A DNA stretch of 64,000 bases from Opitutales bacterium (GCA_965197745.1 CBDANS010000006.1:1184001-1248000), one strand, 5' to 3'. Counted from the stretch's first letter, positions 4,609 to 53,248 are shown. Numbers and translations: made by a program. Notes: a model not told the origin generated them from the sequence alone.

Positions 4609-5926
4609 TGGTCGTGACCACGAAAACTGGTACACTTGAAAAGTTAGTCTGGGTAACCTAGAAAGGACTCAGACAATGAAAGGCAAAAGATACACAACTG
4701 AAGAGAAAATACGGATGCTGCGGCAGGCGGACAAAGGGAAAACGATCCTGGAAGCATGCCGCGAGAACAACATTAGCGAACAGACTTTCCACCGCTGGAA
4801 GCGTGAGTTTGGGATGATTGATGTCGACCAGGCCAAGCGGATGAAGGAACTCTTTGAAGGAGAACGCGCGGTTAAAACGGATGCTGGCGGACAAGATGCT
4901 GGGGATAGAGATCCTGCAGGAGACCCTCGAAAAAAAACTGTAAGCCCTGGGCACAAGCGGCAAGTGGCAGAGAGACTTGTGGCTCGGGGCCAGTGTTCGA
5001 TGCGAGCGGGGTGCCGGTACTTTCGGCTGCACCGTTCCACCTATGCGTATAAGGCGAAGCATCCGGATGCTTGGTTAATGAAACTGAAGGCGGCAGTAAG
5101 GCGGTTATCACGGCAATATGCCAGGTGGGGCTATCCGAAGATCACGAAGCTGTTGAAAGACGAAGGCTGGGAGGTGGGTAAACGTCTCGTGCAAGGTCTA
5201 CGACGCGAACTGGGCTTGGCGATCCCCCAACGCAAGCCAAGACGTCGGGGCAGGGGTGTTTCCACCGGGCTGCCGACCAAGGCCGAACATCCCGGCCATG
5301 TTTGGACCTGGGATTTTATCCACGATAAGACGGTCCGCGGTGGCAGTTTAAAAATGTTGACCGTGCTCGATGAGTACACCCGCGAGTGTCGAGTGATCCA
5401 TGTTGATCGCCATATCAATGCGGAAACGGTGCGCGGTATCATGCAAAAACTGCTTGCCCGTCATGGGCCGCCACAATATATTCGCAGTGACAACGGTTCC
5501 GTTCCGAGGAGCGAAGCGACGACATGCGAAGCCATTCATTGAAAAGGAATTGAGAGCCTGGCTAACTGCGATGAAAATCAAAACCCTCTATATCGAACCA
5601 GGAAGCCCTTGGCAGAACGGATACATCGAATCGTTGCATGCCCGTTTTCGCGAGGAGTGTTTAAACCGTGAACAGCTATGGACTTTGACCGAAGCCCGCG
5701 TGGTGATCGAGGACTGGCGCTGGCTTTACAATAATGTCCGACCCCACCGCAGCCTCGGCAATATCACCCCACGGTGCTTCGCTGAAGACATTAATACCGA
5801 AGGCTTGGGCTCCATTCGGGCTACGCCCTCATTGCGCCCAAGCCTTGACTTCCTCTACCAACTTAACTTCAACATTAACCTCTCCAGACTAACTCTCTCG
5901 GTGGACCAGTTTACGTAACCCGATCA
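4609..5926 (+). mobile_element. IS3-family element type A, copy 1 (1318 bp), defective transposase
   Basis: TG...CA ends; IRL TGGTCGTGACCACGAAAACTGGTACAC vs IRR TGATCGGGTTACGTAAACTGGTCCAC; orfA HTH, A8 slippery site 4930-4937, DDE motifs WTWDF/SDNG/QNGYIES; no TSD. Confidence 0.95.
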
Positions 5927-5970
5927 GGTGCAGACACTCCCGTGAGTTAACATTAGCTTTATGGAGTCAA

Positions 5971-6957
5971 ATGAACGAAGACCGAATAAAACATTTTCTT
6001 GTAGAAATTGGAATTAAAGGAGCGGATGATATCTATCGAAAGTCTTATTTCAGCAATGATTTTACGGATAGGCAGATTTATGTCGTAGAAAATAGTGCAA
6101 TAATAAAAACCTATAGTCGAAACGCACTTGGCAGTTATACGCTTGAGCAATATCTTGGGTCCATTATTGAGCAAGAAAACATATGGGCACCTCAGATTCT
6201 AGGGTATGCTTCATATGATGACGAAGCCTACCTTGTATTAGACTTCGTTGCCGGTCCCGTGTTGAATGATGTATATCAACAGCTGTCGTTTCATGACTAC
6301 TGCTTCATGCTAAGCTCATTGGGAAAAGCGATGCATTCGTTTCATTCCGTAAGCTTAAACGATAGACTGAATGTTCCTACCATTAAAGGGCATTCACCAA
6401 ACCATGTAACCGAGTCCAAGCAAAGATGGCGTGATTACACTGTTACCCTTGAGGCATTGTGCGATGCTGAACTGGTGACTCATATCGGCAAGACTGTCAT
6501 TTGCAGCTGTATTGACAATGTGTCTGACAGGGCGTTTTCAACAGATACCGTATTAAGCCATACGGATATTCACAACGAGAACGTGATGTTCGATAAGCGA
6601 AACTCGGAACGGCCGATCTCGATCATCGACTGGGAAATGGCCGCGATCCAGCCCAAGGAGCTGGACTTCGTTCATCCACTCCTGAATATCTTAGGTGAAG
6701 GATTTCCTGGGAGGCGTTTGGCCAATCAAGTCGTCTGTGGCAGTCAGAACGAGTTTCTAAGATCATTTGAAGATGGATATGGAGAGAGAATTGATTGGGA
6801 GGTTGTGATTTGTCACAGTTTTCTCTGGTATCTGGAATGTGCTCTCGAATCACATAATGAAGGTGAGGAAAGTTTAAGAAACTTCTATATTAAAACAGGA
6901 TTGGGTGGCTTGGAGTTTATAGGAGGGACTCAGTTAGATGAACTAACAAATGTATGA
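5971..6957 (+). CDS. APH/choline kinase-like phosphotransferase
   Basis: Brenner motif HTDIHNEN and IIDWE. Confidence 0.8.
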   Translation: MNEDRIKHFLVEIGIKGADDIYRKSYFSNDFTDRQIYVVENSAIIKTYSRNALGSYTLEQYLGSIIEQENIWAPQILGYASYDDEAYLVLDFVAGPVLNDVYQQLSFHDYCFMLSSLGKAMHSFHSVSLNDRLNVPTIKGHSPNHVTESKQRWRDYTVTLEALCDAELVTHIGKTVICSCIDNVSDRAFSTDTVLSHTDIHNENVMFDKRNSERPISIIDWEMAAIQPKELDFVHPLLNILGEGFPGRRLANQVVCGSQNEFLRSFEDGYGERIDWEVVICHSFLWYLECALESHNEGEESLRNFYIKTGLGGLEFIGGTQLDELTNV

Positions 6958-7056
6958 AAAGTTAAATCGAGTCAGGCCATGTATTCCGGTAAAATAGTAA
7001 AATGCCAGTACCGAGCCTCGAAACTGCGGGACGACAGTTCACATGCAGCGCATGAC

Positions 7057-7989
7057 TTATTTCTCTTCAATCGCCGGATCGCCGTCGTTATCATCGACAG
7101 ATTGGTTGGATAAAATTTGAATTAATACAGCTCGATTCGGTCCGGAAGCAACTATCTGGCATTCGAAATTCTCGTTAACATCTATTGACGACTCCGCCGC
7201 TATTCTGTATTCTCGTTCTGCAGCCCCGAGAAATGTAGATTGGGATCTAAACGCATCCCTGGTGTAGTGTTCTGCAGATAGCCTCAGTCTAACTAATCTC
7301 TCTTCTTTCGCATTGTTTACTATCCGAAAATGCGTATGCGCAACGTTTTCTTCAAATCCCCATGTTGTATCAACTATCTCAATTTCGCTTTGCTTCAGGA
7401 GTGCGTAAATGAGCGATACAATAAGGCAAGCAGCGATAGTAGACCAAAACATCAAAGCATTTCCTTTTTTCCTTTTTTTCATCGACGTAGTTTGTATGCC
7501 AGGCTGTGGGGTGCGGTGCGATTGTAACCTATCGAACCTTTGGCGATTCTCGAAGACATCACTCTTCACGTATGGATTGGATTGCTTCGACCCTCCTTTA
7601 ACTGTCGCCGTTAATTCGCTCATCCGCTTGTCAATTTCGGTCTGGAGCCCTTTACCGACAAAACCAGAACACTTATTATAGAAGAACAATGCTTTTTCGA
7701 AGTTTTCAATCTTCGTGTCATTGCATTCGCTTCCTATTCCTTTCGCTCGATAAATTTCACTCATCAAGTAGCTTTTCTCGATAACCATTCGATCTGATTC
7801 CTCGAAAAGACGATAGACTTCGTCAACCGAGAGTGAAAGCAACATGCTTGCTGGCAAGCCAATCCATTGGCCGGTTATTTCATCAAGATCTGCTTCAATA
7901 CTTTCTTGAGAGGAGCTTTGATTGAGGATGCGGCGAATAAATTCACCTATCTGTTGAATCATCCGTAAAATATAATCTTCTCGAATCAT
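7057..7989 (-). CDS. Hypothetical membrane protein (MIREDYILRMI-type N-terminus, one TM segment, C-terminal domain)
   Basis: 310-aa ORF with hydrophobic segment ALMFWSTIAACLIVSLIYALL. Confidence 0.65.
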   Translation of the reverse strand: MIREDYILRMIQQIGEFIRRILNQSSSQESIEADLDEITGQWIGLPASMLLSLSVDEVYRLFEESDRMVIEKSYLMSEIYRAKGIGSECNDTKIENFEKALFFYNKCSGFVGKGLQTEIDKRMSELTATVKGGSKQSNPYVKSDVFENRQRFDRLQSHRTPQPGIQTTSMKKRKKGNALMFWSTIAACLIVSLIYALLKQSEIEIVDTTWGFEENVAHTHFRIVNNAKEERLVRLRLSAEHYTRDAFRSQSTFLGAAEREYRIAAESSIDVNENFECQIVASGPNRAVLIQILSNQSVDDNDGDPAIEEK

Positions 7990-8255
7990 ATGCCTTCATG
8001 CCCCCAAGCGCTATGACGTGCGCCGACTTGTTAGCGTGCTTTGGTCAGGGTTCAGGTTAATCGCGAGAATGGCGAGCCGAAAGAACGGTCCCTTTATCGG
8101 TTCCACTTTAGCGAAAACGACTGACTGAATTTGTGAAATCCTTGAGGAAATAAGAGTGAGCGCTTCCGAAGCAGAATTGACCTTCTTCTATTATAGCCCA
8201 ATAAATGCTTATTCTTTTGGACTTTTCAGAATCCGTTCAACTCTTTTAGCAAACA

Positions 8256-9077
8256 ATGTCTATAATCAACACAGTAGATCATGAGCACGCATCTCGCTTT
8301 AAAGCAAATAGTGTTGTGGAACGGTATGGGTTTCGTTCTCCTTATCACCGGGATATAATTGATTTTCTCATTTCACTGATCCCTGAGCATGCGACAGCCG
8401 TACTGGATGCCGGTTGTGGACCGGGAAAGATCGCGCGTGAATTAATAGGTAAGGTTGATCGCATCGATGCTGTTGATTTCTCGGAAGAAATGATCCGACT
8501 GGGCAAATCATTGCCTAATGGCGACAATCCTAAAATCTGCTGGATGCACTCGAGAATTGAAGAGGCAACACTCAATCCGCCCTACGGTCTAATAGTTGTC
8601 GGTGCCAGTTTGCATTGGATGGAGCTGAATCTTGTTTTTCATAAGTTTAATGATGCGCTCGATCCAGCTGGCTCTCTAGTTATTATTGATGGGGATGGCC
8701 CCTGCAAAGTCCCTTGGGAGGAATTTCGAAATGATCTGATTTCCGAGTATTCAACCTATAAAGACTTCGTTCCCTTTGATGCGGTAAAAGCGTTGGAAAG
8801 CTCGGGTTATTTTTAGTTGATTGAACATCGCGTAATGGGGCCTTACGATTTCAATCAAACGATTGACCAATTTCTGAACGCAGAACACTCGCGAGCGTCT
8901 CTCTCAATAGAAGGACTGGGGGAAAACAAACGAAATGAATTTGACTGTAAAATGAAGGAAATTCTTCAACCGTTTATCGAAAATGGTATTTTAAAATACC
9001 AAGTAAAAACACGGGTCGTGTGGGGAAAAGCCATACACTGTGAACAGGATAACCAGATGAATAGTTCTACAGCGTAA
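8256..9077 (+). pseudogene. Class I SAM methyltransferase split by in-frame TAG (8814-8816)
   Basis: VLDAGCGPG motif I; ORFs 8256-8816 and 8817-9077 are in the same frame and read as one protein. Confidence 0.75.
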
Positions 9078-9907
9078 TGGCTAAACATATAGAAGAATTG
9101 AATAGGAAAATGTTCTCTTCTGCTTCTAAGTTTCTTGAGGGAAGCAGAAGTGAAATGGATAAATCCTATATCAATTTCATTTCTGCAGCTATAAAGAATA
9201 AAGGCGTAACTAATTTTTTGGACATCGGTTGTGGGTTAGGATTCTTAACGAAAATCACAAAATCACTTGTCCCCAAATCTAGTGCAACGGGAGTAGATAT
9301 TTCTCCTGAATTAATTGAAATTGCTAAAAGAGATTCAGACGAGACATACAATTTTAAAGTCGATGACGCGTACGATTTATCATTTGAATCGGATACTTTT
9401 GATCTAACTATATGTCAGACTTTATTTATGCATTTATCACAACCTGAGAAAGCGTTGCGTCAGATGATTCAGGTTACTAAGCCGGGAGGTCAAGTTTTAG
9501 TAATTGAACCAATAATTCACTCTGACGGAAAGAATAGCTATGTTCCTGGAGAAGGATCAGTGAAAAAGATGCAAAGAGACAAGCTACATCGCTTTGATCA
9601 GACTCAAAAGGAAAGTGGAGGAATTGATATGTTTATTGCACCTAAGTTACCGAGTCTGTTTTTACAAAATAACTTAAATGACGTTCAAGTAACCTCTTTC
9701 AATCATTTTATATTAAAGACAGATTTAGTTTCAGAAAAATTAGATAAGGTTGAATTAAGTTCATATTATAAAATGATGATTTCATTAGGTTATCCAAAAT
9801 CCGAAATTGAAGAACTATTAAAGAATGAAGCTTTGTATAAATCCGTCCCAGGTGAGTTCAATTTTATAACATTGCTTGCGGTATCTGGCATTAAACCAAA
9901 TACATAG
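9077..9907 (+). CDS. Class I SAM-dependent methyltransferase
   Basis: FLDIGCGLG, TFDLTICQTLFMHL, VTKPGG. Confidence 0.85.
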   Translation: MAKHIEELNRKMFSSASKFLEGSRSEMDKSYINFISAAIKNKGVTNFLDIGCGLGFLTKITKSLVPKSSATGVDISPELIEIAKRDSDETYNFKVDDAYDLSFESDTFDLTICQTLFMHLSQPEKALRQMIQVTKPGGQVLVIEPIIHSDGKNSYVPGEGSVKKMQRDKLHRFDQTQKESGGIDMFIAPKLPSLFLQNNLNDVQVTSFNHFILKTDLVSEKLDKVELSSYYKMMISLGYPKSEIEELLKNEALYKSVPGEFNFITLLAVSGIKPNT

Positions 9908-9964
9908 ATTTGATTGGGTTAAAAACGTAGAACATAGGGTAGAAAATAAATAACACGAACCGCT

Positions 9965-10435
9965 ATGAATCCTCAGTACGACGACCAATGTGAATCATGT
10001 AAAAACCTGCAAGGACAGATACGATTATCTAATGCACCAAGAATATTTGAAACTGCTCATTGGATAATTGAACACGTGCATCCCACTTCGGTAGAGGGAT
10101 GGGTGGTGTTGGTTTTAAAGAGACATTGCAAAGCCCTTCATGAACTAACTGCAGATGAATATTCAGAATTTAGTAAATTGCTTAAATCCGTTTGTGAAGC
10201 ATTACACAGTATACTAGATACAGAAAAAGAATACGTCATGCAATTTGCAGAAATGGCTGGATTCCACCACGTTCATTTTCATGTAATTGCCAGAGGAAAG
10301 GACTGGCCTGCAGAACTCAAAGGGCCACGAGTATTTTCTGGACACGGGGAAAAGGTGGAAAATCCTTTGACGTCCGAAGTAACAATTTCAATCGCGCTTA
10401 AAATTCAAAGTTATCTTCAATCACATTTTGAGTGA
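9965..10435 (+). CDS. HIT-family protein
   Basis: CxxC near N-terminus, HVHFH triad. Confidence 0.85.
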   Translation: MNPQYDDQCESCKNLQGQIRLSNAPRIFETAHWIIEHVHPTSVEGWVVLVLKRHCKALHELTADEYSEFSKLLKSVCEALHSILDTEKEYVMQFAEMAGFHHVHFHVIARGKDWPAELKGPRVFSGHGEKVENPLTSEVTISIALKIQSYLQSHFE

Positions 10436-10468
10436 TGACTTTTATTATACTTGGTGAACTGAATTTCT

Positions 10469-11479
10469 GTGATGTCTCCTACATTCCCAATTAATACATC
10501 TATTATATCCAGTGATGCTCTCCTGGAAAGAGTGTTAAATAGATATGTATTTAAAGGGGAAATAGAGTGTCATTTCTTTTGTTCTCGTGTAAATGACACA
10601 TATATTGTCGAAACGGATTCGAAGACTTACTACCTCCGCGTATATTATTACAGATGGAGATCGAGACGAGATATAGATGCAGAAATTGAACTTTTAAATT
10701 ATCTAAAGAAAAAGAAGATACCTGTTTCTGTCCCCGTAAAAAGAAAAGACGGATCATACATTACCAGGATAAATGCACCTGAGGGCATTCGATATGCCGT
10801 GTTATTTACAGGTGCTGAGGGTAGAGTTCCTCTTAATATGAACAATAAGCGTAGTTCATTATATGGAAAACTAGTAGCTAAAATTCACAATGTGACAGAT
10901 AAACTGGATAAAGAATATTTGAGATTCCACATTGATCTGAAGCATTTAATTGATGATCCATTGTGTCATATAGAATCATTACTTAAACATAGAAAAAACG
11001 ATTTTAATTATCTTTGTAAAATTGGAGAATCGCTGAAGCTTGAAATCGACAAGTTGTTACCCAAAACCAAACCACAATATGGAATATGTCATGGTGACCA
11101 CTTTGGTGGTAATGTTTTCTTTAACGAAAACGATGAATTGACGCTATTTGATTTTGATTGTTTTGGATATGGATGGAGAGCTTACGATATTGCTGTTTTT
11201 CTGTCTTCTAGAACTACAATTGGCAATTGGAGTATAGAAGCGAATTCAAAAAGGACAAGACGTTGGAACGCTTTCTTGAAAGGTTATACTAAGGAACGAG
11301 AGCTGAGTGACGAAGAAATAATAGCAACAAAGATATTCGTTCCGATTAGGCAAATATGGGTTTTAGGTTTGCAAACACAAAGTTCCGAACGATTCGGAAG
11401 AGCATGGATGGGCGATGCATATTTCGACCAGCATATTAATTTCATCAAGGATTGGATTAAAAACTACAAAGTATTATGA
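10469..11479 (+). CDS. Phosphotransferase (type II homoserine kinase/APH-like)
   Basis: CHGDHFGGN, LFDFDCFGYGWRAYDIA. Confidence 0.85.
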   Translation: MMSPTFPINTSIISSDALLERVLNRYVFKGEIECHFFCSRVNDTYIVETDSKTYYLRVYYYRWRSRRDIDAEIELLNYLKKKKIPVSVPVKRKDGSYITRINAPEGIRYAVLFTGAEGRVPLNMNNKRSSLYGKLVAKIHNVTDKLDKEYLRFHIDLKHLIDDPLCHIESLLKHRKNDFNYLCKIGESLKLEIDKLLPKTKPQYGICHGDHFGGNVFFNENDELTLFDFDCFGYGWRAYDIAVFLSSRTTIGNWSIEANSKRTRRWNAFLKGYTKERELSDEEIIATKIFVPIRQIWVLGLQTQSSERFGRAWMGDAYFDQHINFIKDWIKNYKVL

Positions 11480-11579
11480 GTGTTCTAACTAGTGATTCTT
11501 GAACACAATTTCATCAATCTATTATTGGAAATAAAGGCTCAATTCAAAATTTAATACCAGCAAACAGTGTCGAATAAAA

Positions 11580-12596
11580 ATGAATATCGACTATATCATT
11601 AAATATTTCAACAAGCGCAAAACCAGAATTAATCCGGATAAAGAACCTGGGTTTAGTTCTGCAATAATCCATAATGGGCAGATGATTTATGAATTAAATC
11701 ATGGTCTAGCCAATCTTGAGCATGAAACTCCGCTAACCAGCAGTTCTCTGTACTATTTGGCTTCAGTGTCTAAACAGTTTACTGCGACCTGTGTTTTAAA
11801 TTTAGTAAACGATAAACGACTAAAGTTAAGTCAGGACATTAGAGAGATTGTAAAGGAGACAAAACATTTTAAAAAGAAAATCACAGTTCAAAATTTATTA
11901 AATCATACAAGTGGTATACCAGATTACTTCCAGTATTTTGCTTGTCAGCTTGGGCGACATCCAAGTGACTACTTTGAAAACGCAGATATTTTAAGAGTTT
12001 TGAGTAATATTTATTCCGTTGATTTTCAACCAAACGAAAAATTTAGTTATAGTAATACCAACTATATTATTCTCACCCAGATAGTAAAACTTATCTCTGG
12101 AATATCGTTTCCTAAGTATGCAAAAAAAGTAATATTCACTCCCTTAGGAATGAAAATAACGCTTTTTGATAACGATAGGTACAAAGTTATTAAGAATCGG
12201 GTATATAGTTATACTACTGAGTCTAACAAACCACGAAGATATAGAGTTGAATTGAAAAATTCGTGTACCGTTGGCGATGGAGGTGTTCTTTCTAATATCA
12301 ACGACCTTGCTAAATGGGAGATAAACTTCCATGACAATAAAATCTTACCAAAGAATATAATTAGAAGACTAACAAACAATTTAAGATTATCGAATGGTAA
12401 GTATGTTAATTATGGTAATGGTCTATTTCTGAAAGATGTAGGTAAATATAAATTAAATTATCATGGTGGAGCGTTTGAGGGATTTCGTACATATAATCTT
12501 AGAGTTCCATCAATGAAATTGTCTGTTATTTATCTTTCTAACAATCCTTCACAAGTTTTTGATTTTAACCCCAGTTTCATTTTTAGAAAGAAATAG
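11580..12596 (+). CDS. Serine hydrolase, beta-lactamase/transpeptidase-like (no signal peptide)
   Basis: SVSK (SxxK), LLNHTSG, YSN, HGG. Confidence 0.85.
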   Translation: MNIDYIIKYFNKRKTRINPDKEPGFSSAIIHNGQMIYELNHGLANLEHETPLTSSSLYYLASVSKQFTATCVLNLVNDKRLKLSQDIREIVKETKHFKKKITVQNLLNHTSGIPDYFQYFACQLGRHPSDYFENADILRVLSNIYSVDFQPNEKFSYSNTNYIILTQIVKLISGISFPKYAKKVIFTPLGMKITLFDNDRYKVIKNRVYSYTTESNKPRRYRVELKNSCTVGDGGVLSNINDLAKWEINFHDNKILPKNIIRRLTNNLRLSNGKYVNYGNGLFLKDVGKYKLNYHGGAFEGFRTYNLRVPSMKLSVIYLSNNPSQVFDFNPSFIFRKK

Positions 12597-12602
12597 CTGA
12601 CG

Positions 12603-25526: not shown

Positions 25527-25773
25527 TTGTCATTGCGAGGGAGGTTATCAGCCGACCGCGGCTACCGATCCCCGCAACTGCAGGACGACATCTTTCAATC
25601 CAAGCGAATAATCATTATGTTTCCAGATACTAGATCTGGCACGGATCTTTCCAATGATCGTCAGTATCTTCGAATAATGCATTCGTATAACTGAGAGTTA
25701 ACCCTAACAACTAAGGACTTACTATACGCAACAGACATTGGCCTGGATTGCTTCGCTTTGCTCGCAATGACAA
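25527..25773. repeat. REP doublet/MITE-like unit with TTGTCATTGCGAG...CTCGCAATGACAA ends; left arm carries micro-insertion
   Basis: 13-bp terminal inverted repeat between convergent genes; same family at 43517, 47031, 52993. Confidence 0.85.
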
Positions 25774-25844
25774 AAGGGACAATAACGAAGAGTATTGGCA
25801 CCAATACTTATCAGGGTTCACCATGGAGCCTTGATTCGACTAAA

Positions 25845-33160: not shown

Positions 33161-34478
33161 TGATCGGGTTACGTAAACTGGTCCACCGAGAGAGTTAGTC
33201 TGGAGAGGTTAATGTTGAAGTTAAGTTGGTAGAGGAAGTCAAGGCTTGGGCGCAATGAGGGCGTAGCCCGAATGGAGCCCAAGCCTTCGGTATTAATGTC
33301 TTCAGCGAAGCACCGTGGGGTGATATTGCCGAGGCTGCGGTGGGGTCGGACATTATTGTAAAGCCAGCGCCAGTCCTCGATCACCACGCGGGCTTCGGTC
33401 AAAGTCCATAGCTGTTCACGGTTTAAACACTCCTCGCGAAAACGGGCATGCAACGATTCGATGTATCCGTTCTGCCAAGGGCTTCCTGGTTCGATATAGA
33501 GGGTTTTGATTTTCATCGCAGTTAGCCAGGCTCTCAATTCCTTTTCAATGAATGGCTTCGCATGTCGTCGCTTCGCTCCTCGGAACGGAACCGTTGTCAC
33601 TGCGAATATATTGTGGCGGCCCATGACGGGCAAGCAGTTTTTGCATGATACCGCGCACCGTTTCCGCATTGATATGGCGATCAACATGGATCACTCGACA
33701 CTCGCGGGTGTACTCATCGAGCACGGTCAACATTTTTAAACTGCCACCGCGGACCGTCTTATCGTGGATAAAATCCCAGGTCCAAACATGGCCGGGATGT
33801 TCGGCCTTGGTCGGCAGCCCGGTGGAAACACCCCTGCCCCGACGTCTTGGCTTGCGTTGGGGGATCGCCAAGCCCAGTTCGCGTCGTAGACCTTGCACGA
33901 GACGTTTACCCACCTCCCAGCCTTCGTCTTTCAACAGCTTCGTGATCTTCGGATAGCCCCACCTGGCATATTGCCGTGATAACCGCCTTACTGCCGCCTT
34001 CAGTTTCATTAACCAAGCATCCGGATGCTTCGCCTTATACGCATAGGTGGAACGGTGCAGCCGAAAGTACCGGCACCCCGCTCGCATCGAACACTGGCCC
34101 CGAGCCACAAGTCTCTCTGCCACTTGCCGCTTGTGCCCAGGGCTTACAGTTTTTTTTCGAGGGTCTCCTGCAGGATCTCTATCCCCAGCATCTTGTCCGC
34201 CAGCATCCGTTTTAACCGCGCGTTCTCCTTCAAAGAGTTCCTTCATCCGCTTGGCCTGGTCGACATCAATCATCCCAAACTCACGCTTCCAGCGGTGGAA
34301 AGTCTGTTCGCTAATGTTGTTCTCGCGGCATGCTTCCAGGATCGTTTTCCCTTTGTCCGCCTGCCGCAGCATCCGTATTTTCTCTTCAGTTGTGTATCTT
34401 TTGCCTTTCATTGTCTGAGTCCTTTCTAGGTTACCCAGACTAACTTTTCAAGTGTACCAGTTTTCGTGGTCACGACCA
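33161..34478 (-). mobile_element. IS3-family element type A, copy 2, inverted relative to copy 1, 4-bp TSD AGGG
   Basis: Same length and identical ORF translations as 4609-5926; AGGG at 33157-33160 and 34479-34482. Confidence 0.95.
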
Positions 34479-43516: not shown

Positions 43517-43590
43517 ATTCGCCTGGAATGGAAGATGTCGTTGCGCTCGGTAGCTTCGTCTCCCGCGGATGCGGATCCTCGCAATGACAA
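43517..43590 (-). repeat. TTGTCATTGCGAG REP arm with 33-bp micro-insertion
   Basis: Reverse strand: ttgtcattgcgagg...gaagc[taccgagcgcaacgacatcttccattccaggcg]aatc. Confidence 0.85.
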
Positions 43591-44601: not shown

Positions 44602-44681
44602 TTATGGTTTTAAACATTCAAGTCGTATTTATAAACGTCAAGAGAAGAAGCTTTCCACCTCAACTCTGGAGCGAATAAAAA

Positions 44682-44937: not shown

Positions 44938-44942
44938 CTAAC

Positions 44943-45926
44943 TCAATCTTTCTCGTCTATCGCCTGCATCAATGCATGCAGATAACCATAGCAGTAGGCG
45001 AATCCGACACGACCCGCTTCATCACCATCAATCCCTGGCACATGGTCCGGCATTACCATGTAGGGATATCCGACTTCTTTATAGACGCGTAGAGCTTTTA
45101 ACATGTCAACCTCACCCTCGTCCGGAAACACTTCAACGAAATCGAGAAACCCACCCTTTATATTGCGGAAGTGAAGATTAAAAATCTTATTCCGTTCACC
45201 GAAATATCTTATGATCTTAAAGATTTCTTCACCCGGATTAGTCAGCATTTCCGAGATCGTGCCCTGGCAAAAATTCAAACCGTGCCAGGGGTTCTCGTGC
45301 ATGGACACATATTTTTTAAGCCCATCGACGGTCCCCATCACCCTGGCTACGCCCCGGTAAGTATCGTCGCCGATGCCGGGGTCCTGCGGATGACAGGCCA
45401 ATTGAACCTTATATTCTTCGGCTACCGGGACTACCCGTTCCAGCCAGTAATCGATGCGCTCCCACATCGTGTCGGCATCCGCGGCTCCCCCTTCGAATTC
45501 ACCCAGTGATTGATCTAATTTTTGGTAATCGAATGATGAGAGCTCAGCGCCCCCCCGGCCGTGACGGGATTCCGTTCTCAGGTGCCCGAGAATGGTAATA
45601 TTATAATTAACTCCGCGCAGACCGGCAGCGGAGGCCATTTGAATGATTTCGCAAGCACCATCGATCTCTCGCTCGCGCTCGTCGCTCGGGCCGAGAAAAA
45701 TATGAGACATTTCTCTTTCAAAAGCCGATCGTGAGCTGAGGGGAAGATGAATCATTTCCACGGTGATTCCGTGTTTGGCGTAATTCTCCCGTATGGAAGT
45801 TAAAGAATCGACTGACCATTCTCTCCAGGGTTCCTGCGGTGTGACATCGACATGCTCGACTCCCAACTGAGATAATTGTAGGATGTCCGTTTCATGTCGG
45901 TCGGTATATTGTGTGCCTAAGTACAT
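44943..45926 (-). CDS. Mannonate dehydratase (UxuA)-like protein
   Basis: LACHPQDP, GLNFCQG, HFRNI, MPDHVP. Confidence 0.85.
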   Translation of the reverse strand: MYLGTQYTDRHETDILQLSQLGVEHVDVTPQEPWREWSVDSLTSIRENYAKHGITVEMIHLPLSSRSAFEREMSHIFLGPSDEREREIDGACEIIQMASAAGLRGVNYNITILGHLRTESRHGRGGAELSSFDYQKLDQSLGEFEGGAADADTMWERIDYWLERVVPVAEEYKVQLACHPQDPGIGDDTYRGVARVMGTVDGLKKYVSMHENPWHGLNFCQGTISEMLTNPGEEIFKIIRYFGERNKIFNLHFRNIKGGFLDFVEVFPDEGEVDMLKALRVYKEVGYPYMVMPDHVPGIDGDEAGRVGFAYCYGYLHALMQAIDEKD

Positions 45927-45976
45927 GCGAAGTCTCTTAAAACAATGTCACGAATCATGCAATTGAGGAATTTGGG

Positions 45977-46084
45977 TTGATTCACCGCAGAGTCGCGGAG
46001 AACGCAGAGATAAAATTTTAAAATCAAGAAAAACAAACCCTAAATTAAATTCTCAGCGCCCTCTGCGCCTCTGCGGTGAATCAA
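45977..46084. repeat. Inverted repeat unit with perfect 16-bp ends TTGATTCACCGCAGAG
   Basis: 45977-45992 is the reverse complement of 46069-46084; internal 9-nt periodic cgcagag motifs. Confidence 0.85.
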
Positions 46085-46088
46085 GAAG

Positions 46089-46874
46089 TTACTTCACAAA
46101 ACGCTTGAGGTGATCCCGCAGGACTTGCTCGCCACCGAGTTTTACTAATTCACCGTCTTCCGCGGTGAGCAGCAGCTGTATCCCTTCGGCGTTTTTCTCA
46201 ATCCACTCGGCGGCCTGGTTGAGCTCGCCAAATGAATCCACCGCGATGCCGGCTGCTTTATTATTGTCTTTCGCCGCCTTCACGATACGCGATATCGCGG
46301 ACTTAAAATCGGGATGATCCCACTGCTGAAAACAACCCATGCCGAGGGAGAGATCGGAAGGGCCAATGAAAACAGAGTCCAATCCCTCCAATTGCGCGAC
46401 TTCTTCAATCACATCGAGGAGGCTGGTCAATTCTACCTGGACCATGACGATGACATTGTCATTCCAGTTTTCAAAATAGCTGTCGTCCGCTCCATAGTTC
46501 GAAGCCGCCTTCGGTCCGAATCCGCGAATCCCCTCGGGAGGGTATTTGCAGCTGGCAATAGCCCGCTTCGCATCTTCTACCGTCCCGACTAGAGGAACGA
46601 GAACGCCCTGAGCGCCATGGTCTAAAACCTGTTTAATAACGTCGGGTCGGTTATCCTCAACGCGAACGAGGGGCACGGTTTCGGAATCTCTGAACATCCA
46701 TAATATCTCGCGCAAAGACTCGGTGTTGCGCGGGGCATGTTCATTATCGATGATCACATAATCAAAACCAACCCTCGCCAGGTTGACTGCAATGAGCGCA
46801 TCCGACGACGTCGACCAGCCGCCTACACTGATTTTACCCTCACGCCATTTGTTCTTTAATTCCCGTCCCGTCAT
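46089..46874 (-). CDS. HpcH/HpaI aldolase family
   Basis: IDNEH, YPPEGIRGFG, FIGPSDLS; ATG 46874 preferred start. Confidence 0.9.
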   Translation of the reverse strand: MTGRELKNKWREGKISVGGWSTSSDALIAVNLARVGFDYVIIDNEHAPRNTESLREILWMFRDSETVPLVRVEDNRPDVIKQVLDHGAQGVLVPLVGTVEDAKRAIASCKYPPEGIRGFGPKAASNYGADDSYFENWNDNVIVMVQVELTSLLDVIEEVAQLEGLDSVFIGPSDLSLGMGCFQQWDHPDFKSAISRIVKAAKDNNKAAGIAVDSFGELNQAAEWIEKNAEGIQLLLTAEDGELVKLGGEQVLRDHLKRFVK

Positions 46875-47030
46875 CGCTGTGAATGGATAGTTATATTTCT
46901 TTGTCTCCGAAATCAAGCTGTATCTATGGATAAGGAAAATGAGTATAAGCGAACAAGCGTGAATGCGGATTCGATGCAGGAACCAAATTGGCGGGCCACG
47001 CATCGTCGTGGTCGCGCAATACCTAAATTC

Positions 47031-47102
47031 TCATTGCGAGGATCCCGCAGTTGCGGGTGACGCGGCTACCGAGCGCAACGACATCTTCCATTCCAGGCGA
47101 AT
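47031..47102 (+). repeat. TCATTGCGAG REP arm with 33-bp micro-insertion
   Basis: tcattgcgaggatcccgcagttgcgggtgacgcggc[taccgagcgcaacgacatcttccattccaggcg]aat. Confidence 0.85.
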
Positions 47103-47211
47103 ATACGTTATGTATACACTATCAACGGATTCCAGATAACAACTGGCACCGCAGTCTAAACTAGTTTAAGAATAACAATTGGCTTTTATAGCATGAACCT
47201 TGCGCTATCCA

Positions 47212-48402
47212 CTATTCAGGCTTTCCAAGGAAGTTAAACGTCGACGTCGTTATTTTTAAAATATCACCGTCATCATTAATGCCATCAGCCCAAGTCCCCT
47301 GCTGCACTAATACAAGGAATAGAGTATATTCACCGATTGGTTCTACTCCAGACCAAACATATTGGAAAACACTGAAGTTATCGACAATGAATGGATTAAT
47401 CAGATCTACCCCGGCTACGAAGGGAGTAAGGGTTGAGAAATCAGATAAGTTTCCCTGTGTAATTGTGGATCCACTGTTACTAATGCAGAATATTATTCCA
47501 AAGGGGCAACCCATTCCCACATAAATGTCAACGAATACATCTACGCCATGATTGTTTACATTCATGGTTATATTCATGGGATCGCCAATATTATATTCAT
47601 CCTGATCTGCATTGATGTTACTTTCAAACAATATATCTATATCATCTGGAATGGATATGGCAATTGGGCCCTGAACAACGGCATAGCCTAGGTTAGGACG
47701 GTCATCTTTTCTGATATCTTGTTTGCCCGTTTTGGTTGCTGAAAGAACACATCCAGTATCAATGCTTAACCCTGACACCAGTGCTGATTGATCGAATGTG
47801 ACCGAGACAATGCGGCAGATGGTGCCTCCATCTCCATTATCGTCGTCGTCACCGTCATCATCATCACCTTCGTCACCGTCATCGTCATCACCTTCGTCAC
47901 CGTCATCGTCACCGTCATCGTCGTCGTCGCTGTCATCAAATTCAAACTTAATTCCCTTTATCTGGGTTGTTGGATCATTGCTTGCTATTTCGCAATCGCC
48001 TTCTCCATCAAATCCACATTCTACGACGAAGTCATTTAAGGTATTACCCTCGGCTAAAAATGGTTTAATTTGGTCAAGTGCAAGTACCCAATGGCCAAGA
48101 TCTTTTACCTGTGGACTCTGTTTGCATATATCATAAATAAATGTAACGAAATTTTCTTCAACCTCTACTGTCAACAGCTCAACACTGAACTTGCCGTTAT
48201 CAGTAATCGCCGGGTTGTCGTCACAGTTTGAAACTTCAGGGAGTTCTACTTCAGTATCGGGTGGTTTACCCTTCGAATGATCATCTTTATGTTCGGCGTA
48301 TGATACTACGCCAGTCAACATAACCAGGCTAATTACGACTGGAAAATAAATTAAAAACTTTCGAATAATAGAAATGGGCACTCTGCTTATATAGCTGAAC
48401 AA
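47212..48402 (-). CDS. Secreted acidic hypothetical protein with Asp/Gly-rich tract
   Basis: Hydrophobic N-terminal segment; DDDDGDEG repeats from a 24-bp tandem unit at 47861-47908. Confidence 0.7.
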   Translation of the reverse strand: MFSYISRVPISIIRKFLIYFPVVISLVMLTGVVSYAEHKDDHSKGKPPDTEVELPEVSNCDDNPAITDNGKFSVELLTVEVEENFVTFIYDICKQSPQVKDLGHWVLALDQIKPFLAEGNTLNDFVVECGFDGEGDCEIASNDPTTQIKGIKFEFDDSDDDDDGDDDGDEGDDDDGDEGDDDDGDDDDNGDGGTICRIVSVTFDQSALVSGLSIDTGCVLSATKTGKQDIRKDDRPNLGYAVVQGPIAISIPDDIDILFESNINADQDEYNIGDPMNITMNVNNHGVDVFVDIYVGMGCPFGIIFCISNSGSTITQGNLSDFSTLTPFVAGVDLINPFIVDNFSVFQYVWSGVEPIGEYTLFLVLVQQGTWADGINDDGDILKITTSTFNFLGKPE

Positions 48403-48612
48403 TGATAATTATCCTTTCTTAAACTTGTGATAATTGCTTATCGTGTAAAGCGACATATGGTGAAAAAACATCATTTTTGTTGTTATTAGGTATAACGTAT
48501 AAATCCCTATGTAGTATAAGCTCAGCTTAGATTATTGTATAATAAAACGGAGCCGGGACGCTGAAGTAAATCGGGAAACAGTCGTATCATAAAACGGAAA
48601 ATAGCAATGGCA

Positions 48613-50905
48613 TCACTCAATCGTGATCTCATCGGTTGTCACTGAAATCTCATCCCCGTCCTCGTTGGCGAAAGTGGCATCGATACTCTGGGTCGGTTGA
48701 GGGGTGTTATCGGACTTGAAGTTGTTTTGAGTGATCAAAGTCTCAAACCCGGGTATCGTCGATCCACTCTCCGCGACGACGATTGAAGCTCCGTTCGTCT
48801 GCGAAAGGTCGCCACCTGTGATCCGCAAACCGGGGTTGCCCGCCGGCACTGTGAAAGAACCCCCTCCAAACAGAAGGTGGGGTACCGCGTCGCCACTGGC
48901 ATCGATGTCGCCCACGGTAATGCGTACTGCGATCGGCACCCCGCGCGCATCCACGCCGGTCTTGCCGGTGCTTCCCGAAAAAACAGTGTTCGACAGCTGC
49001 ATCCCTCCCATTCCAGTGGAATTTATTACTTCCACCAGGGTCACATCCGCCTGTGCATCATAAACTTGCCCCTCGGGGAAGAGGGCCTGGTTCACGGCAT
49101 TGATGGATCCTACGGTGAAGATACTGAAGAAGGTACTGGAGTCCGCACCGTCGATGACCACGCTCGGTTTGCCCGTAACGTATTCTACTGCCTGGTTGTA
49201 GCGTGGGGGAATAGCAGGGGGCAGGAAGGTAGCCGGGGCGAGGGTTACGGTAAAGGATCCTGCACCCGAGAACTCTACCTGCACAATGTCCTCGGTTTCA
49301 TCCATAAAGGAGACCCGGGTAATTTGACCCGGCCTGGCTTGGAGCTGGATCGTTTCACCGGTAAGTAGAATCTGGTCGAAGATGTTTCCATTCGGATGCT
49401 GGATGTTCTCTCCCGCGATATCGCCTGTACCGTCAAGTACCAGAGGGACGGAGGGTGCCGCTACAGTGATGACTGCCGTTTCACTGTTTGCGTTGCCGCC
49501 GGCATTGGTAATTTGCACCCAGAAATTCGTGCTAACGGTGAGAGAACCCGTGGTCAAGGTGCCGCTCGTGGCCCCGGTGACAGGATTCGCGGAGTCACTG
49601 CTGTTGCCGGAAAACCATTGGTAGGTAAGATCATCGCCGCTTGCCGCTACTGATAAAACAACAGCCGTTCCGGTTTGCACTTTCTGGCTCGCAGGTTGGG
49701 TAGTGATGGAGGGGGCACTCGGTCCTCCTCCGTCGCTCGGTGCGCCGATCGGGGTGAAGCCTATATCATCGATGGCAATATTTAAAAATGAGCCGGATGC
49801 CGTCACCGTTTGAGGGTTTATGTAGCGAATTTCACCAATGCCCCCCCGGAGCACCCAGTTCCTCTGCAACGAATGAGAACACCTCGAAAGGTGCCTCATT
49901 GACATCAAACATGTTCAGAGGGATGTCCGTAGTCGAGAGGAGTAAATTTCCCTCTGCGTCATAAACTTCTAATTCGCCATCCCCTTGCTCTATAACCGCG
50001 GCGTAAAATTCAACTTTGGCAGCTGGAGTTTCAAAAGTAATTATCCCGGTCCCTTCGTCCGGAACTTGCCAGGATCCTCCACCTACATCACCGGTAGGTT
50101 CACCGCCTTCAGAGGATAAAGGTAGGGTGTGGTTAAATCTATAAAATGTCGAAGCAATAATGGTTGAGACGATACCACCGGTAAAGGTGGCCGTAACCGG
50201 AGGTGTTCCCAGCGTGAAATTTACACGGTTTACAAAAGTGCTGAAGATAGGATGATTATCCAGACCTGAAAAATCTTCGAATACGGTATTGTTAGGCGGT
50301 CCATCGACATAAGAAAATCCCAGGTCATCAAGGGCGACGGCTCCACCTGGATTAACTATTTTAATTTCTTTTATTCCGTTCGTAAAATTGAGGTCGGTAG
50401 TGATGTTGGTATCTCTAATGAAGGCGACAAAACTTTGTAGAGGGGGATTAGCACCCGGGCTGATATTGGCGGGTAGGCCTTCAACTACACCTGGATCCGC
50501 CAGAATAATAAAGTTTTTATCTCTTAACTCGATTCGACTCCCGCTCTGGGTATCCACCGCAAAGAACTGAAGTAAGTTAACCCCTCTTTCGAAGACGATT
50601 TTTCCCTCTGAGGCACCTGGAGCCAGGACTAATGCCTGGGTACCTGAATGAGCGAGCGCAGGGTCAGTTACGGTTTCCAAGGAAAAATTAAAAACCTGGA
50701 TACTGTTCGGGGATTCACCAAAAACAAATGTAGTACCCTCTGCTGATACCCCTTCAAAATCGAAGAAATTATCCAGGTTCTGTTGGGCTGCAAGGTATGA
50801 CGGCCAAAGAAGGATGAGTATTAAACAGAGTTGAATATATTTAGTGAACATAAGCTGCTTCCTGTCAGATTTTATCAGATCTCCCAATTTTACAAAAGAG
50901 CGCAC
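48613..50905 (-). CDS. Secreted multidomain protein (two tandem N-terminal repeats, Ig I-set-like domain, shared C-terminal domain), split by +1 frameshift at C7 49841-49847
   Basis: ORFs 49832-50905 and 48613-49908 join to AEELGAPGGIGEI, matching paralog AEELGAPGGIGKI; likely start ATG 50851. Confidence 0.85.
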
Positions 50906-50997
50906 TTACTAGCCACCAGACTGTTGAAAGTCAAGGGAGGTTCCCTGCCAATGACGATTGCGTCGAATGATAATTTTAAATTGAAAACCGTCAGTTA

Positions 50998-51060
50998 CAA
51001 TCCGCAATCGTACCGAGGACGAAGGCCGACATCTTACAAATCAGCAATCCGCAATCGAAT
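50998..51060 (+). repeat. AATCCGC/AATCAGC heptamer repeat containing a micro-insertion (51011-51037)
   Basis: caatccgcaatcg[taccgaggacgaaggccgacatcttac]aaatcagcaatccgcaatcg. Confidence 0.65.
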
Positions 51061-51063
51061 GTC

Positions 51064-51756
51064 TCAGGTATTTAAAATACCTTTGCGTCTATAGACTATG
51101 GCAACAACAAGCGCGTATATTACGTGATTTATCCAGCTGATCACGCTGGTCTTGACGATGCCATTCCCACCATCTTGAGCAGCCATTTCAGGTTCGACAA
51201 GGTCTTCACTAGGGAGAGGTGCTTCCGCGACAGCTTCTGTGGGGCTATTGGATTCGCTCGAATCAACATTTTCGCCGACTTCCTCAGCTGCGTCCACACT
51301 GGCCATTTCCTCTTCCGTGAGGGGGATATCGATGCTAACTTCTGCTTGCGGAAGGTCGGCATTGCTAAAGGCCAGATTAGTGAGAACGGGTAAACCGAGT
51401 ACCGCGATAACACTTAATACGGTTCCGTAAAGAACACCTTTTAGAATTTGAGAAGCGCCGAGCGGAGAAATAAGCCCGGCATAGATCACGCCGTAAAAAA
51501 TACCAATCACTAAATGAAAGGCGCCACCTACAAGGTAGTGGCTTAACTGTCCTGCCCCCGTTCCCATGAACTTGGTTCCAAGCATGATGATATCGCCCAG
51601 ATCCTTCATGATATTCAGACCGAAAAGGGCCATGGTCCCGGTCATTACCGCGGTAGCAATTATACTGGCAATAATTGCGCGACCCCATCTCAAGCCCTGT
51701 CTTATATCAAATGCCGTCTGGCTGGACGCTCTGTGAGGAGGGGGATTTTCTTCCAT
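51064..51756 (-). CDS. Hypothetical 4-TM membrane protein with acidic loop
   Basis: ATAVMT, HLVIGIFYGVIY, NHVIYAL. Confidence 0.7.
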   Translation of the reverse strand: MEENPPPHRASSQTAFDIRQGLRWGRAIIASIIATAVMTGTMALFGLNIMKDLGDIIMLGTKFMGTGAGQLSHYLVGGAFHLVIGIFYGVIYAGLISPLGASQILKGVLYGTVLSVIAVLGLPVLTNLAFSNADLPQAEVSIDIPLTEEEMASVDAAEEVGENVDSSESNSPTEAVAEAPLPSEDLVEPEMAAQDGGNGIVKTSVISWINHVIYALVVAIVYRRKGILNT

Positions 51757-51961
51757 AATGGATAACCGGATTTTGGATATTATTGATTGAAGTAAAACGA
51801 CAGGCTAATGTTTAAATGAATATTTATTCTCAACCAAGATTTTTTTTATATTTTTAAGCGTTTATTAATATGACCTCACAATTTACCGACTGCGGCTTCG
51901 TTAGGTTATGGAGCCAGGTGGATAACTCCTTTGAATAAAACGATTAATGTCGGTTGATGAA

Positions 51962-52858
51962 TTACCGGGTTTCTGTTAAAACATGTTCGATAAGCGATTC
52001 CGCATAGTCGGATTCAGCTTTGCTCAGCGTGTAGGTAGAGGAGCGCACGACAGGCTGATCGATTAATCCCTGACGGGCAAGCAAGCGCTTTTCTAAATGG
52101 AGAAGAATTTCCAAATTTTGCAGGGAATAATTGATGAAGGGCAATAGACGCCCCATTTCGGTAATAGCATTTGTCATCTCATCATCCCTGGCCAGGCGGT
52201 AAATACGGTTAAGGGGTTCGAGCAATGCCATACCCGGCATCACGCCGCATAATCCATGGGGAATTAATTCTAACATATAGTAACCACCCCAACCCTCGAG
52301 GACACCCACGCGATCATTCACGCGATCACGAATCGCCAGTAATTTATTAACAAATAAAGGTTCCTCCAGTTTAACATAGGTAAAATTAGGATGATTCTTG
52401 TTCAGGGTGTGTATTAATTCAGGACCAATTGTCGGTCCCCCGGGATTGAAATCCTGGACTAATAAGGGAAGGGAAATTGCGTCAGCAATTCTGCTTAAGT
52501 GGTTCAAGACATCACTTTCACTTATAGCGAACAGGCGTGGAACCGCAGTGGAGATCATGTCCACGCCCATTTCCTGGTAATGTCGGGCTATCTCGCAAGC
52601 AACACGGCTGGATACATGATTGGCCTGTCCAATAACCGGTATTTTTTTTGCGGCCGCTTCTACGGCAGTACCGATAACCGCTTCGCGTTCTTTATCTGTC
52701 AGCTTATAAAACTCACTGGCATAAGCAGGGAGACAGATTGCTTCCGCGCTTGATTGGGAGCAGAATTCAACCAGGCGTTTTAAATCCGCATGGTTAATGG
52801 ATTCGTCTTCATTGAACGGAACCGGAACAATAGGGACAATACCATCAATATTTATCAT
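51962..52858 (-). CDS. DHDPS-family aldolase/dehydratase
   Basis: VPFNEDESI, ASEFYKLT, VQD, YVKLE. Confidence 0.85.
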   Translation of the reverse strand: MINIDGIVPIVPVPFNEDESINHADLKRLVEFCSQSSAEAICLPAYASEFYKLTDKEREAVIGTAVEAAAKKIPVIGQANHVSSRVACEIARHYQEMGVDMISTAVPRLFAISESDVLNHLSRIADAISLPLLVQDFNPGGPTIGPELIHTLNKNHPNFTYVKLEEPLFVNKLLAIRDRVNDRVGVLEGWGGYYMLELIPHGLCGVMPGMALLEPLNRIYRLARDDEMTNAITEMGRLLPFINYSLQNLEILLHLEKRLLARQGLIDQPVVRSSTYTLSKAESDYAESLIEHVLTETR

Positions 52859-52992
52859 GGGGGTGATCTTTTATTTATATAGGGATAAATGGCAAAGGAG
52901 AATTAAAATTTACCGCGGAGGTGTTAAGATCGCTATGTCAATGGAATGATCAGGCGGTGTGTTCTAAATGTCATTTTACAAAAATACTCCTA

Positions 52993-53248
52993 TTGTCATT
53001 GCGAGGGAGGCTATCAGCCGACTGCGGCAATCCAGAAATATTGAATTGACCGATATTACATTTGAACCGAACTAAAAGTATGTGCGCAATATCTATTACG
53101 AATTACAACCTTGCTAATAAGCATGACAGAGGACTCATTGGGTATTTATGAGCGAAGAATGATATTTGCAGGCACAGTGACTATTCGCCTGGAATGGAAG
53201 ATGTCGCTGCGCTCGGTAGCCACGTCGCGCTGCTCCTCGCAATGACAA
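52993..53248. repeat. REP doublet/MITE-like unit (left arm empty, right arm with micro-insertion)
   Basis: TTGTCATTGCGAG at 52993 and CTCGCAATGACAA ending 53248. Confidence 0.85.

Follow-up and report, generated by a model that had tools for sequence, protein, structure and literature searches.

The RAYT/REPIN and IS200/IS605-derived (Y1 HUH) elements combine a hairpin with short single-stranded motifs, make no target duplication and include non-coding units that are mobilized in trans; to our knowledge, they are the only well-understood precedent for units as small as those reported here. Small dispersed repeats (SDRs) of the Nostocaceae, reportedly described by Elhai et al. in 2008, are said to be ~21-27 nt long, to be thought mobile, to form hairpins in some cases, to insert into tandem heptamers and into HIP1 and to fall into sequence families SDR1-8; we know of no report of SDRs filling transposase genes. 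Byps, mobile GC clusters of yeast mitochondria and phage T4 gene 60 represent hairpin inserts, 27-55 nt long, that disrupt the reading frame in genes that are otherwise conserved and are kept in mRNA, and miniature inverted-repeat transposable elements (MITEs) make target duplications. Here we describe a family of micro-elements of 23-45 nt, each a hairpin within an asymmetric frame, that recurs in a 64,000-nt stretch of an Opitutales bacterium (GCA_965197745.1 CBDANS010000006.1:1184001-1248000, which is C6:1184001-1248000 of the 4.45-Mb, 7-contig source genome G000; hereafter, the window) and, across that genome, in other repeats and in the transposase genes of insertion sequences (ISs). It is a new variant among the small mobile repeats that resemble repetitive extragenic palindromes (REPs), and it is richer than the preliminary description, made from the sequence of the window, had indicated.

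Passages of one published account (Di Nocera et al. 2013, PMC3733652) describe REPs as nested in other palindromes and sometimes lying inside genes, as carrying GTAG or CGTC/TGTC tags and unpaired tails, and as often transcribed and sited downstream of genes. In the same passages, the CGTC class, in which CGTC is often TGTC, has no dedicated transposase, and Opitutus terrae, also of the Opitutales, is rich in REPs, including intragenic ones. They also give MITEs as 70-300 bp long with terminal inverted repeats, and Rickettsia palindromic elements (RPEs) as lying in-frame in open reading frames (ORFs) that likely still encode functional proteins.

We searched the source genome with a loose pattern, T[AT]CCGA-N5-25-CGACA, and a strict one, TACCGAGN{5,22}CGACATC. 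The loose pattern had 337 matches compared with 66-102 (mean 83.5) in 10 dinucleotide-preserving shuffles, and the strict pattern had 86 compared with 0 for a reversed-pattern control; on these counts, ~80 of the loose matches are due to chance and the remainder represent a true family. Per 64 kb, ~1.2 loose matches are expected and 8 are seen in the window, and all eight sites named in the preliminary description fit this pattern (plus strand: 5502, 7009, 25563, 47067 and 51011; minus strand: 53218, 43552 and 33585). Among 79 independent loci with a CGACATC tail, 32 lie in REP arms and 47 elsewhere, namely in heptamer-type arrays (15), ATAGCCAC arrays (4), ISs (2) and other hosts (26), most of which are short-period repeats (~7 of the 26 lack a hairpin and look like chance). 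The proposal of one family across unrelated hosts is borne out by this strong enrichment, by a host range that extends beyond any one REP family and by the empty alleles described below. Rfam gave no matches in the window at the gathering threshold, and no prior description of this micro-element family was found in a limited literature search. Separately, a 12-copy coding repeat without a hairpin (TACCGATCGCGGTACG...GGCGACATCGATGCC; for example, C1:29602 and C4:23696) is a chance match to the loose pattern; it has the look of a repeated protein domain and stands outside the family.

Collapsing copies by their flanks gave 74 independent loci with a paired insert, which follow the layout S/TACCGAG-hairpin-CGACATCTTCC/A (slashes mark junctions), a constant frame of 7 + 11 nt around a variable hairpin. 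The 5' frame, which is unpaired, reads T(A/T)CCGA and then G; the base preceding the unit is C in 38 loci and G in 29 (67/74), the tail after CGACA is TCTTCC in 31/74 with close variants in others, and an A comes next in 62/74. The motif first proposed was thus correct but incomplete, the true unit being longer, with the tail TCTTCC and then A past CGACA. Hairpins of 11 nt (31 loci), 7 nt (18) and 18 nt (15) are the main classes, standard units being 23, 27 or 34 nt long; stems are GC-rich, of 2, 4 or 7 bp, and loops are of 3-4 nt, mostly GAA or AAA. In the 11-nt class, 90/104 stem cells are paired, where 1000 shuffles averaged 79.6 and never exceeded 87, and in the 18-nt class 84/98, where shuffles averaged 78.0 and never exceeded 83; the hairpin shape is kept through compensatory stem changes while the stem sequence varies. 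On the other strand the unit reads GGAAGA-TGTCG-hairpin-CTCGGTA, a TGTC-tagged stem-loop.

The 7-8-nt inserts (GCGCAGC, GCGAAGC and GCGTAAGC) match the GCGNAGC / GCGNNAGC mini-hairpin type, a DNA motif that is called extraordinarily stable in passages of PMC13037366, and this fit gives a hint that the DNA acts in its single-stranded form. Sharing the 5' frame of the standard unit are a two-hairpin form (TWCCGAG-GAGC..GCGAC-GACA-N-GCGAAGC-N, 32-43 nt), a 43-nt form (TACCGA-GCGAAGC-GACACCTCAACGAGCCAAAGCGAGAATAAC) and a further variant in which GAGATC replaces GACATC. The ends of the unit, TACCGAG and ATCTTCC, are not complementary, so there are no terminal inverted repeats of the kind found in MITEs, and the absence of such repeats and of coding capacity, noted at the outset, is confirmed.

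The junctions of the unit can be read from pairs of filled and empty sites. The source genome contains two IS3-family lineages, ISa, which includes both copies in the window, and ISb, with 75 near-full-length copies by an alignment-based count and five insert sites, s1 to s5. In alignments of these copies, empty GATG-AA-TAT corresponds to filled GATG[43 nt]ATAT at s1, G-AG-TTC (or G-AG-TTT) to G[32 nt]ATTC at s2, TGGC-AA-AAC to TGGC[43 nt]AAAC at s3 and GATG-AG-TGT to GATG[35 nt]ATGT at s4; s5 is antisense and adjoins the A8 slippery run, reading, in the orientation of the unit, C-AG-T8 when empty and C[24 nt]A-T8 when filled. All five sites follow the rule S-AR-N to S-[unit]-A-N, with one purine missing and no duplication, and DNA contigs from two independent studies contain these empty junctions too, the flanks being bridged by AG or A. 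Deficits of one base recur in other hosts: the 13 canonical filled copies of ATAGCCAC/AAAGGCAC arrays are one A shorter than the 10 canonical empty copies, AACCCTG and ATATCG heptamer arrays have a 6-nt repeat unit behind the insert, as does the array at 51011 (6 nt, not 7), and the deficit is also seen in AAATTAC arrays of G015, a genome of another family.

Empty alleles exist for each kind of site on which the proposal depended. Eight of the 75 IS copies are empty at s2; the heptamer arrays orthologous to that at 51011 in G001 and G002, genomes of another genus in the same family, are 71-77% identical to the window and lack the unit; and for the ~75-nt repeat that hosts the unit at 7009, G001 holds both a filled copy and an empty one (...CAG/CATGCAG...). 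Each host sequence holds the unit in one fixed orientation, and no target duplication was found at any filled/empty pair (IS sites, the 51011 array, the ~75-nt repeat and ATAGCCAC arrays). Many unrelated sequences have received the unit, which lies in a single orientation with respect to the target, behind C or G and ahead of an A-rich stretch, and has not duplicated the target. Insertion at structured DNA, which had also been suggested, does not describe the IS targets, as the five empty sites fold weakly (minimum free energy of -2.7 to -6.8 kcal/mol over ~61-62 nt).

The unit is found almost only at harmless sites, that is, in other repeats and in IS copies. REP arms share the plan of the micro-element (TGTCATTGCGAG-hairpin-CGNRGC-AATCCAGG, with interchangeable hairpins), and their frame, ..CGAG-hairpin-CGA..TCCA, resembles that of the unit; genome-wide there are 75 short arms and 49 long arms carrying the unit, the long arms holding all three hairpin lengths. 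These arms often occur as inverted pairs ~100-250 bp apart, like REPIN doublets (for example, window 25531-25775 and 52993-53245). Also favored are AAAGGCAC / AAAAGCAC 8-mer arrays headed by (A/G)ATAGCCAC (for example, C7:301179, C7:1033770 and C6:1369044) and many AATCCGC-, AATCGAC- and AACCCTG-type heptamer arrays in the source genome. The ~75-nt hairpin repeat, with inverted ends GGTCAGGCC...GCCTGACC in its G001 copies, lies at window 6956-7056, at C6:525915-525990 in the source genome and at loci L008-L010 of G001. A search for units interrupting ordinary genes, in which the unit was removed and restoration of the ORF was sought, gave no convincing case, with two candidates falling short; most hits of the loose pattern in this search were fortuitous and lay within intact ORFs (the reversed control had 29).

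The effect on ISs is extensive. At least one insert is present in 71/75 copies and s2 is filled in 67/75, and the four insert-free copies are all ISa. With sites in the order s5, s1, s2, s3, s4 and scored as filled (F) or empty (E), ISa copies comprise EEFEE (29 copies), FEFEE (4), EEEEE (4), EFFEE (1), FEEEE (1) and FFFFE (1), and ISb copies comprise EFFEE (23), EFFFF (5), EEFFE (3), EEEFF (3) and EEFEF (1). Net insert lengths are +42 nt at s1, where a TGA is brought in, +31 at s2, +42 at s3, +34 at s4 and +23 at s5; four of the five inserts shift the frame or bring a stop, and s3 alone stays open. In the window, the s2 insert at 5502..5533 causes a frameshift, with the ORF stopping 13 codons into the insert and resuming in a different frame, at a position where empty ISa paralogs read ...TCCG-AG-TTT.... 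At least 12 ISa copies with this frame-breaking insert are 99.5-100% identical. Trans-mobilization of broken ISa copies is possible because at least one insert-free copy, C7:406740-408025, keeps the normal OrfA / -1 frameshift / OrfB layout.

ISa and ISb share 97.9% identity in the s2 insert and 93.7% in the s1 insert, compared with 49% and 57%, respectively, for the 150+150-nt flanks of these inserts in that alignment when gaps count as mismatches, and BLAST aligns the two lineages (~73-76%) only around inserts. ISb copies of another genus carry the same inserts at the same sites (s1-s4 are E-F-F-E in G001 and F-F-E-E in G002). A chimeric ISb copy (C7:1673279-1674707) has an ISa-type tract of ~75 nt exactly between its s2 and s3 inserts, and the letters adjacent to s2 are TTC in filled ISa copies, as in ISb, and TTT in empty ISa copies. 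Because an ISa tract is bounded by inserts within an ISb copy and TTC stands beside s2 in filled ISa copies, the lineages appear to exchange sequence by recombination or gene conversion, in which the inserts may serve as patches of identity.

The fate of the inserts in RNA was followed in two metatranscriptome and two DNA runs from different studies, aligned as contigs to an ISb locus at which four sites are filled. RNA run X20 has joints skipping s2, s3 and s4, and identical joints, with bridging letters AG, A and AG, occur in the DNA runs; the skipping joints in RNA therefore represent empty DNA paralogs. RNA contigs also pass gap-free through s1, s2 together with s3, and s4. Removal of the insert from RNA is accordingly unsupported, as there was no RNA-specific joint and the contigs retain the inserts, with the reservation that contig data may miss rare forms, that RNA libraries may contain DNA and that parts without RNA cover are uninformative. 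The IS-borne unit destroys the transposase frame, stays in RNA contigs and has then spread passively with the IS copies.

Outside the source genome, the strict pattern has 130 matches in G001, 143 in G002, 138 in G040 (another family) and 37, mostly of one variant, in G015 (a third family). The other 36 Opitutales relatives have 0-3 matches each, and none of 200 genomes drawn across the phylum, a few of them among those 36, has more than 3, so that the family is abundant in 5 of the 241 Verrucomicrobiota genomes searched, all five of them Opitutales. The 43-nt and two-hairpin forms also occur outside ISs in G015 and G040. A scan of a genome collection with TACCGAGN{5,22}CGACATCTTCC returned at least 103 loci, for which we estimate ~300 chance matches to be expected; among the matches listed, family-like copies (paired insert, S before, A after) come from Opitutales records where the records are titled, and the remainder resemble chance or coding motifs. 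The same pattern gave 16 loci in viral contigs, and a stem of at least 3 bp was present in 0 of the 15 among the matches listed, which marks them as chance. In G015, locus L129 (C44:4364-6362) is an AAATTAC-type array with three 43-nt-form matches ~55 nt apart by sequence search, of which the pattern search recovers two units, ~165 nt apart.

The family is probably a REP/SDR-like non-autonomous DNA element, with frame and hairpin together as the recognition signal and an enzyme acting in trans as the mover. Recognition would involve a single-stranded DNA hairpin together with the two frames, and a trans-acting enzyme would cut and join the unit, for which the Y1/HUH type would be the nearest precedent rather than a directly supported candidate; most of the insertion events may be old. 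Insertion in trans is itself an inference.

Several observations weigh against this interpretation, beginning with the enzyme, as none is linked to the family. A nuclease-reverse transcriptase-like enzyme, one guess of the preliminary description, is not favored, since RVT_1 (PF00078) has no matches in G000, G001 or G002 at E <= 1e-5 (G015 has 3 and G040 has 11). Y1_Tnp is found in all five element-rich genomes (1, 6, 4, 17 and 46 matches) and is also numerous in genomes without elements (26 matches in G035, 7 in G007 and 7 in G008). The sole Y1-type gene of the source genome (C6:163149-163745, minus strand), of a ~330-aa type, is split by a frameshift into frames of 199 and 175 aa, its C-terminal part resembling, by eye, a DnaA-C-type helix-turn-helix. 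Neither units nor REP arms occur within the 7 kb around it (C6:160000-167000, ~3 kb on each side), and no unit lies beside Y1 genes at 6 loci of relatives, only 2 of which (in G015 and G002) are from element-rich genomes. Y1 genes thus neither flank the elements nor track their abundance, which gives no support to the other guess, an HUH/RAYT-like enzyme. Nor is there a replication-strand bias (G-rich stretches +30/-23, C-rich +16/-13) or, at the 74 loci, a conserved target tetranucleotide 5' of the unit, where only position -1 is constrained (C/G). The loss of one purine is a dominant but not a universal junction rule: the filled/empty pair of the ~75-nt repeat in G001 shows no base loss, and REP arms lose no base, GC/AATCC becoming GC[unit]A(T/A/C)TCC. 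Simple old insertion with neutral decay fails to explain 94-98% insert identity amid diverged IS flanks. Finally, no recent insertion or excision was caught in three 12-20-kb syntenic comparisons of G001 and G002 (~93% identity), in which intergenic repeat tracts are too rearranged and no clean presence/absence of a unit was seen, so activity today is unproven.

REPs are among the described systems closest to the unit, which falls outside the four published CGTC families. With REPs in general it shares a short (~20-40 nt) palindromic unit, many copies and the lack of any copy found in a non-IS gene, and with CGTC/TGTC REPs, as characterized in passages of PMC3733652, a 20-40-nt arrangement of tag, stem-loop and unpaired tail, many dispersed copies and nesting. 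The reverse complement reads TGTC-G-stem, with a candidate tag of the TGTC variant abutting the stem, and a GTAG arises only when the flanking base is C (38/74 loci), with CTCG separating it from the stem. In the CGTC families 1-4 of the same passages, the 8-9-bp stems have A/T at positions 1 and 2, the loops are 4-5 nt long and the tails are CCA (PMC3733652), whereas the stems here are GC-rich and of 2, 4 or 7 bp, the loops are of 3-4 nt, the tail on that strand is CTCGGTA and three hairpin length classes share one constant long frame (7 and 11 nt). Intragenic REPs are there said to add residues to ORFs, with REP-inactivated genes presumed lost (PMC3733652), whereas 4 of the 5 IS inserts break the frame.

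Like RAYT/REPIN and IS200/IS605 elements, the unit has a hairpin with short conserved motifs and neither target duplication nor terminal inverted repeats. Unlike them, it has no REPtron, in which the repeats flank the Y1 transposase gene that mobilizes them, no element beside any Y1 gene examined, the one in the source genome being frameshifted, no conserved target tetranucleotide, no replication-strand bias and one base lost at most junctions; IS200/IS605-type elements insert 3' of a conserved tetra- or pentanucleotide, with an orientation bias tied to replication. By description only, SDRs are similar as tiny repeats nested in other short repeats, here heptamer arrays. The frame-breaking hairpin inserts that persist in RNA contigs recall byps, but there is no evidence of bypass or, on inspection, of matching take-off and landing codons, and the hosts are dispensable IS copies. 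MITEs and RPEs are likewise non-coding mobile repeats, some of them inside genes, but the unit has no terminal inverted repeats, makes no target duplication and does not sit in-frame with function kept.

The main rival is spread by conversion and duplication only, in which, with no dedicated enzyme, a few founder units multiplied through duplication of their host repeats and through gene conversion or template switching, with quasipalindrome correction keeping the stems. This is unlikely, although several observations are in its favor: each site has its own insert variant, the commonest accounting for 47/67 filled s2, 23/30 s1 and 7/9 s4 sites; filled and empty sites combine as a mosaic, with 11 state patterns in 75 copies; the chimeric ISb copy has its ISa-type tract between two inserts; TTC beside s2 in filled ISa copies, as in ISb, compared with TTT in empty ones, has the look of co-conversion; and no recent insertion was found in the three G001-G002 regions. 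However, conversion requires flanking homology, which the unrelated hosts do not share, and the flanks are unrelated at 47 or more independent non-REP loci. Three hairpin lengths in the same frame at the same REP position, and a junction rule repeated in unrelated hosts and in another family's genome, also argue against this rival. A different departure, which we consider doubtful, is an undescribed DNA-joining chemistry that swaps a fixed asymmetric frame plus any small hairpin for 1-2 target nucleotides (S-AR-N to S-[unit]-A-N) without duplication, the IS variants staying near-invariant across IS lineages and genera by homing into or regulating transposase genes; the unit would then be a parasite or silencer of insertion sequences.

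Two further explanations assign the units a function. In the first, which is very unlikely, selection would keep them as binding or processing sites used by a host protein or in an RNA function, such as transcript-end hairpins, with dispersal secondary. The strongly conserved frames, the compensatory stem changes, the position of many units between genes and the frequent transcription of REPs downstream of genes (passages of PMC3733652) would suit such a role, but the units are mostly inside other repeats and dead transposase genes, one of the 5 IS sites carries the unit antisense to the gene, the window has no Rfam match and abundance is restricted to a few Opitutales among the genomes searched. 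That the IS inserts are functional intervening sequences, removed from RNA, bypassed by ribosomes or cut out of the DNA as a switch that activates the transposase, is likewise very unlikely, even though it would explain why insert-bearing copies have multiplied. Only four copies, none of them ISb, are insert-free; at least 12 s2-broken ISa copies are alike enough to have multiplied recently; identity between lineages reaches 98% in the s2 insert and 94% in the s1 insert amid diverged flanks, and the same inserts recur at the same sites in another genus; and all 4 sense-strand inserts lie in one codon phase, after the first base of a Glu/Gln codon. Yet every insert-skipping RNA joint is also found in DNA runs with the same bridging letters, RNA contigs are gap-free through all four sense-strand sites, joining the flanks of a filled site leaves the codon one base short, no take-off and landing codons were seen to match, and of the four insert-free ISa copies, at least one, C7:406740-408025, could mobilize the others in trans. 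Functional IS-borne inserts would constitute a new layer of transposase control.

The family is unusually clean material on how the smallest bacterial repeats move, including REPs without RAYT, the CGTC class and cyanobacterial SDRs. Its useful features are interchangeable hairpins in a constant frame, many filled/empty pairs with a reproducible junction and a narrow host range, and G001 and G002 are complete, closely related genomes with ~130-140 strict-pattern copies each. In the source genome, micro-elements are the main inactivators of ISs (71/75 copies), and their inserts are islands of identity across diverged IS lineages.

The copies in the window are listed in the table. The copies reported inside the IS3-family transposase genes are both present, although their extents had to be corrected and they are of the 32-nt two-hairpin form. 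The two REP arms that had been called empty indeed lack the unit, and the degenerate copy suspected at ~53347 could be located. The four REP-arm copies, which were thought possibly to descend from one event, do not, as they comprise one 18-nt and two kinds of 7-nt hairpin.

Micro-elements and their hosts in the window (positions counted from its first letter; E, empty; F, filled)
Feature	Position	Strand	Remarks
ISa, IS3-family, host of s2 insert	4609..5927	+	sites s5-s1-s2-s3-s4 = E-E-F-E-E
Two-hairpin insertion, 32 nt, TTCCGAG-GAGCGAAGCGAC-GACA-TGCGAAGCC, ISa site s2	5502..5533	+	directly 3' of SDNGS codons; net +31 nt
Micro-element, 18-nt-class hairpin, diverged tail (GACAGTTCA)	7009..7041	+	near centre of ~75-nt repeat between convergent ORFs
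Micro-element in REP long arm, 18-nt-class slot imperfectly paired, tail TCTTTC	25563..25596	+	then AATCC
REP short arm without unit, partner of 25563 arm (...GAAGC/AATCCAGG)	25745..25773	-	
Second ISa copy	33161..34478	-	100% identical over 1318 nt to first
Two-hairpin insertion at s2 of second ISa copy	33554..33585	-	same form as 5502..5533
Micro-element in REP long arm, 7-nt mini-hairpin-class insert GCGCAAC	43530..43552	-	
Micro-element in REP long arm, 7-nt insert GCGCAAC	47067..47089	+	
Micro-element in AATCCGC-type heptamer array, 11-nt hairpin GGACGAAGGCC, tail TCTTAC	51011..51037	+	
REP short arm without unit	52993..53033	+	
Micro-element in REP long arm, 7-nt mini-hairpin GCGCAGC	53196..53218	-	
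Degenerate copy, GATCGAG-GGCGAAGCC-CGCCATTTCCC	53347..53373	+	by-eye reading against consensus

Two observations concern neighboring sequences. The repeat tracts of the G001-G002 comparison include a 24-nt presence/absence difference (GCCTGCGACGAGTTTTGTCGAATC) between G001 L018 and G002 L021, inside a conserved repeat (...AAAGGTGGAACGCG/GTGTCCCTACCGCG...), which represents a separate small insertion family. In many ISa copies (for example, window 4676-5542 and C4:136857-138146), the leucine-zipper region of OrfA is in the OrfB frame from 'KEL' onward (...KELFEGERAVKTDAGG...), a reading that fuses the two into one ORF in which the usual -1 frameshift is absent, whereas C7:406740-408025 keeps the OrfA stop after ...LEKKL.

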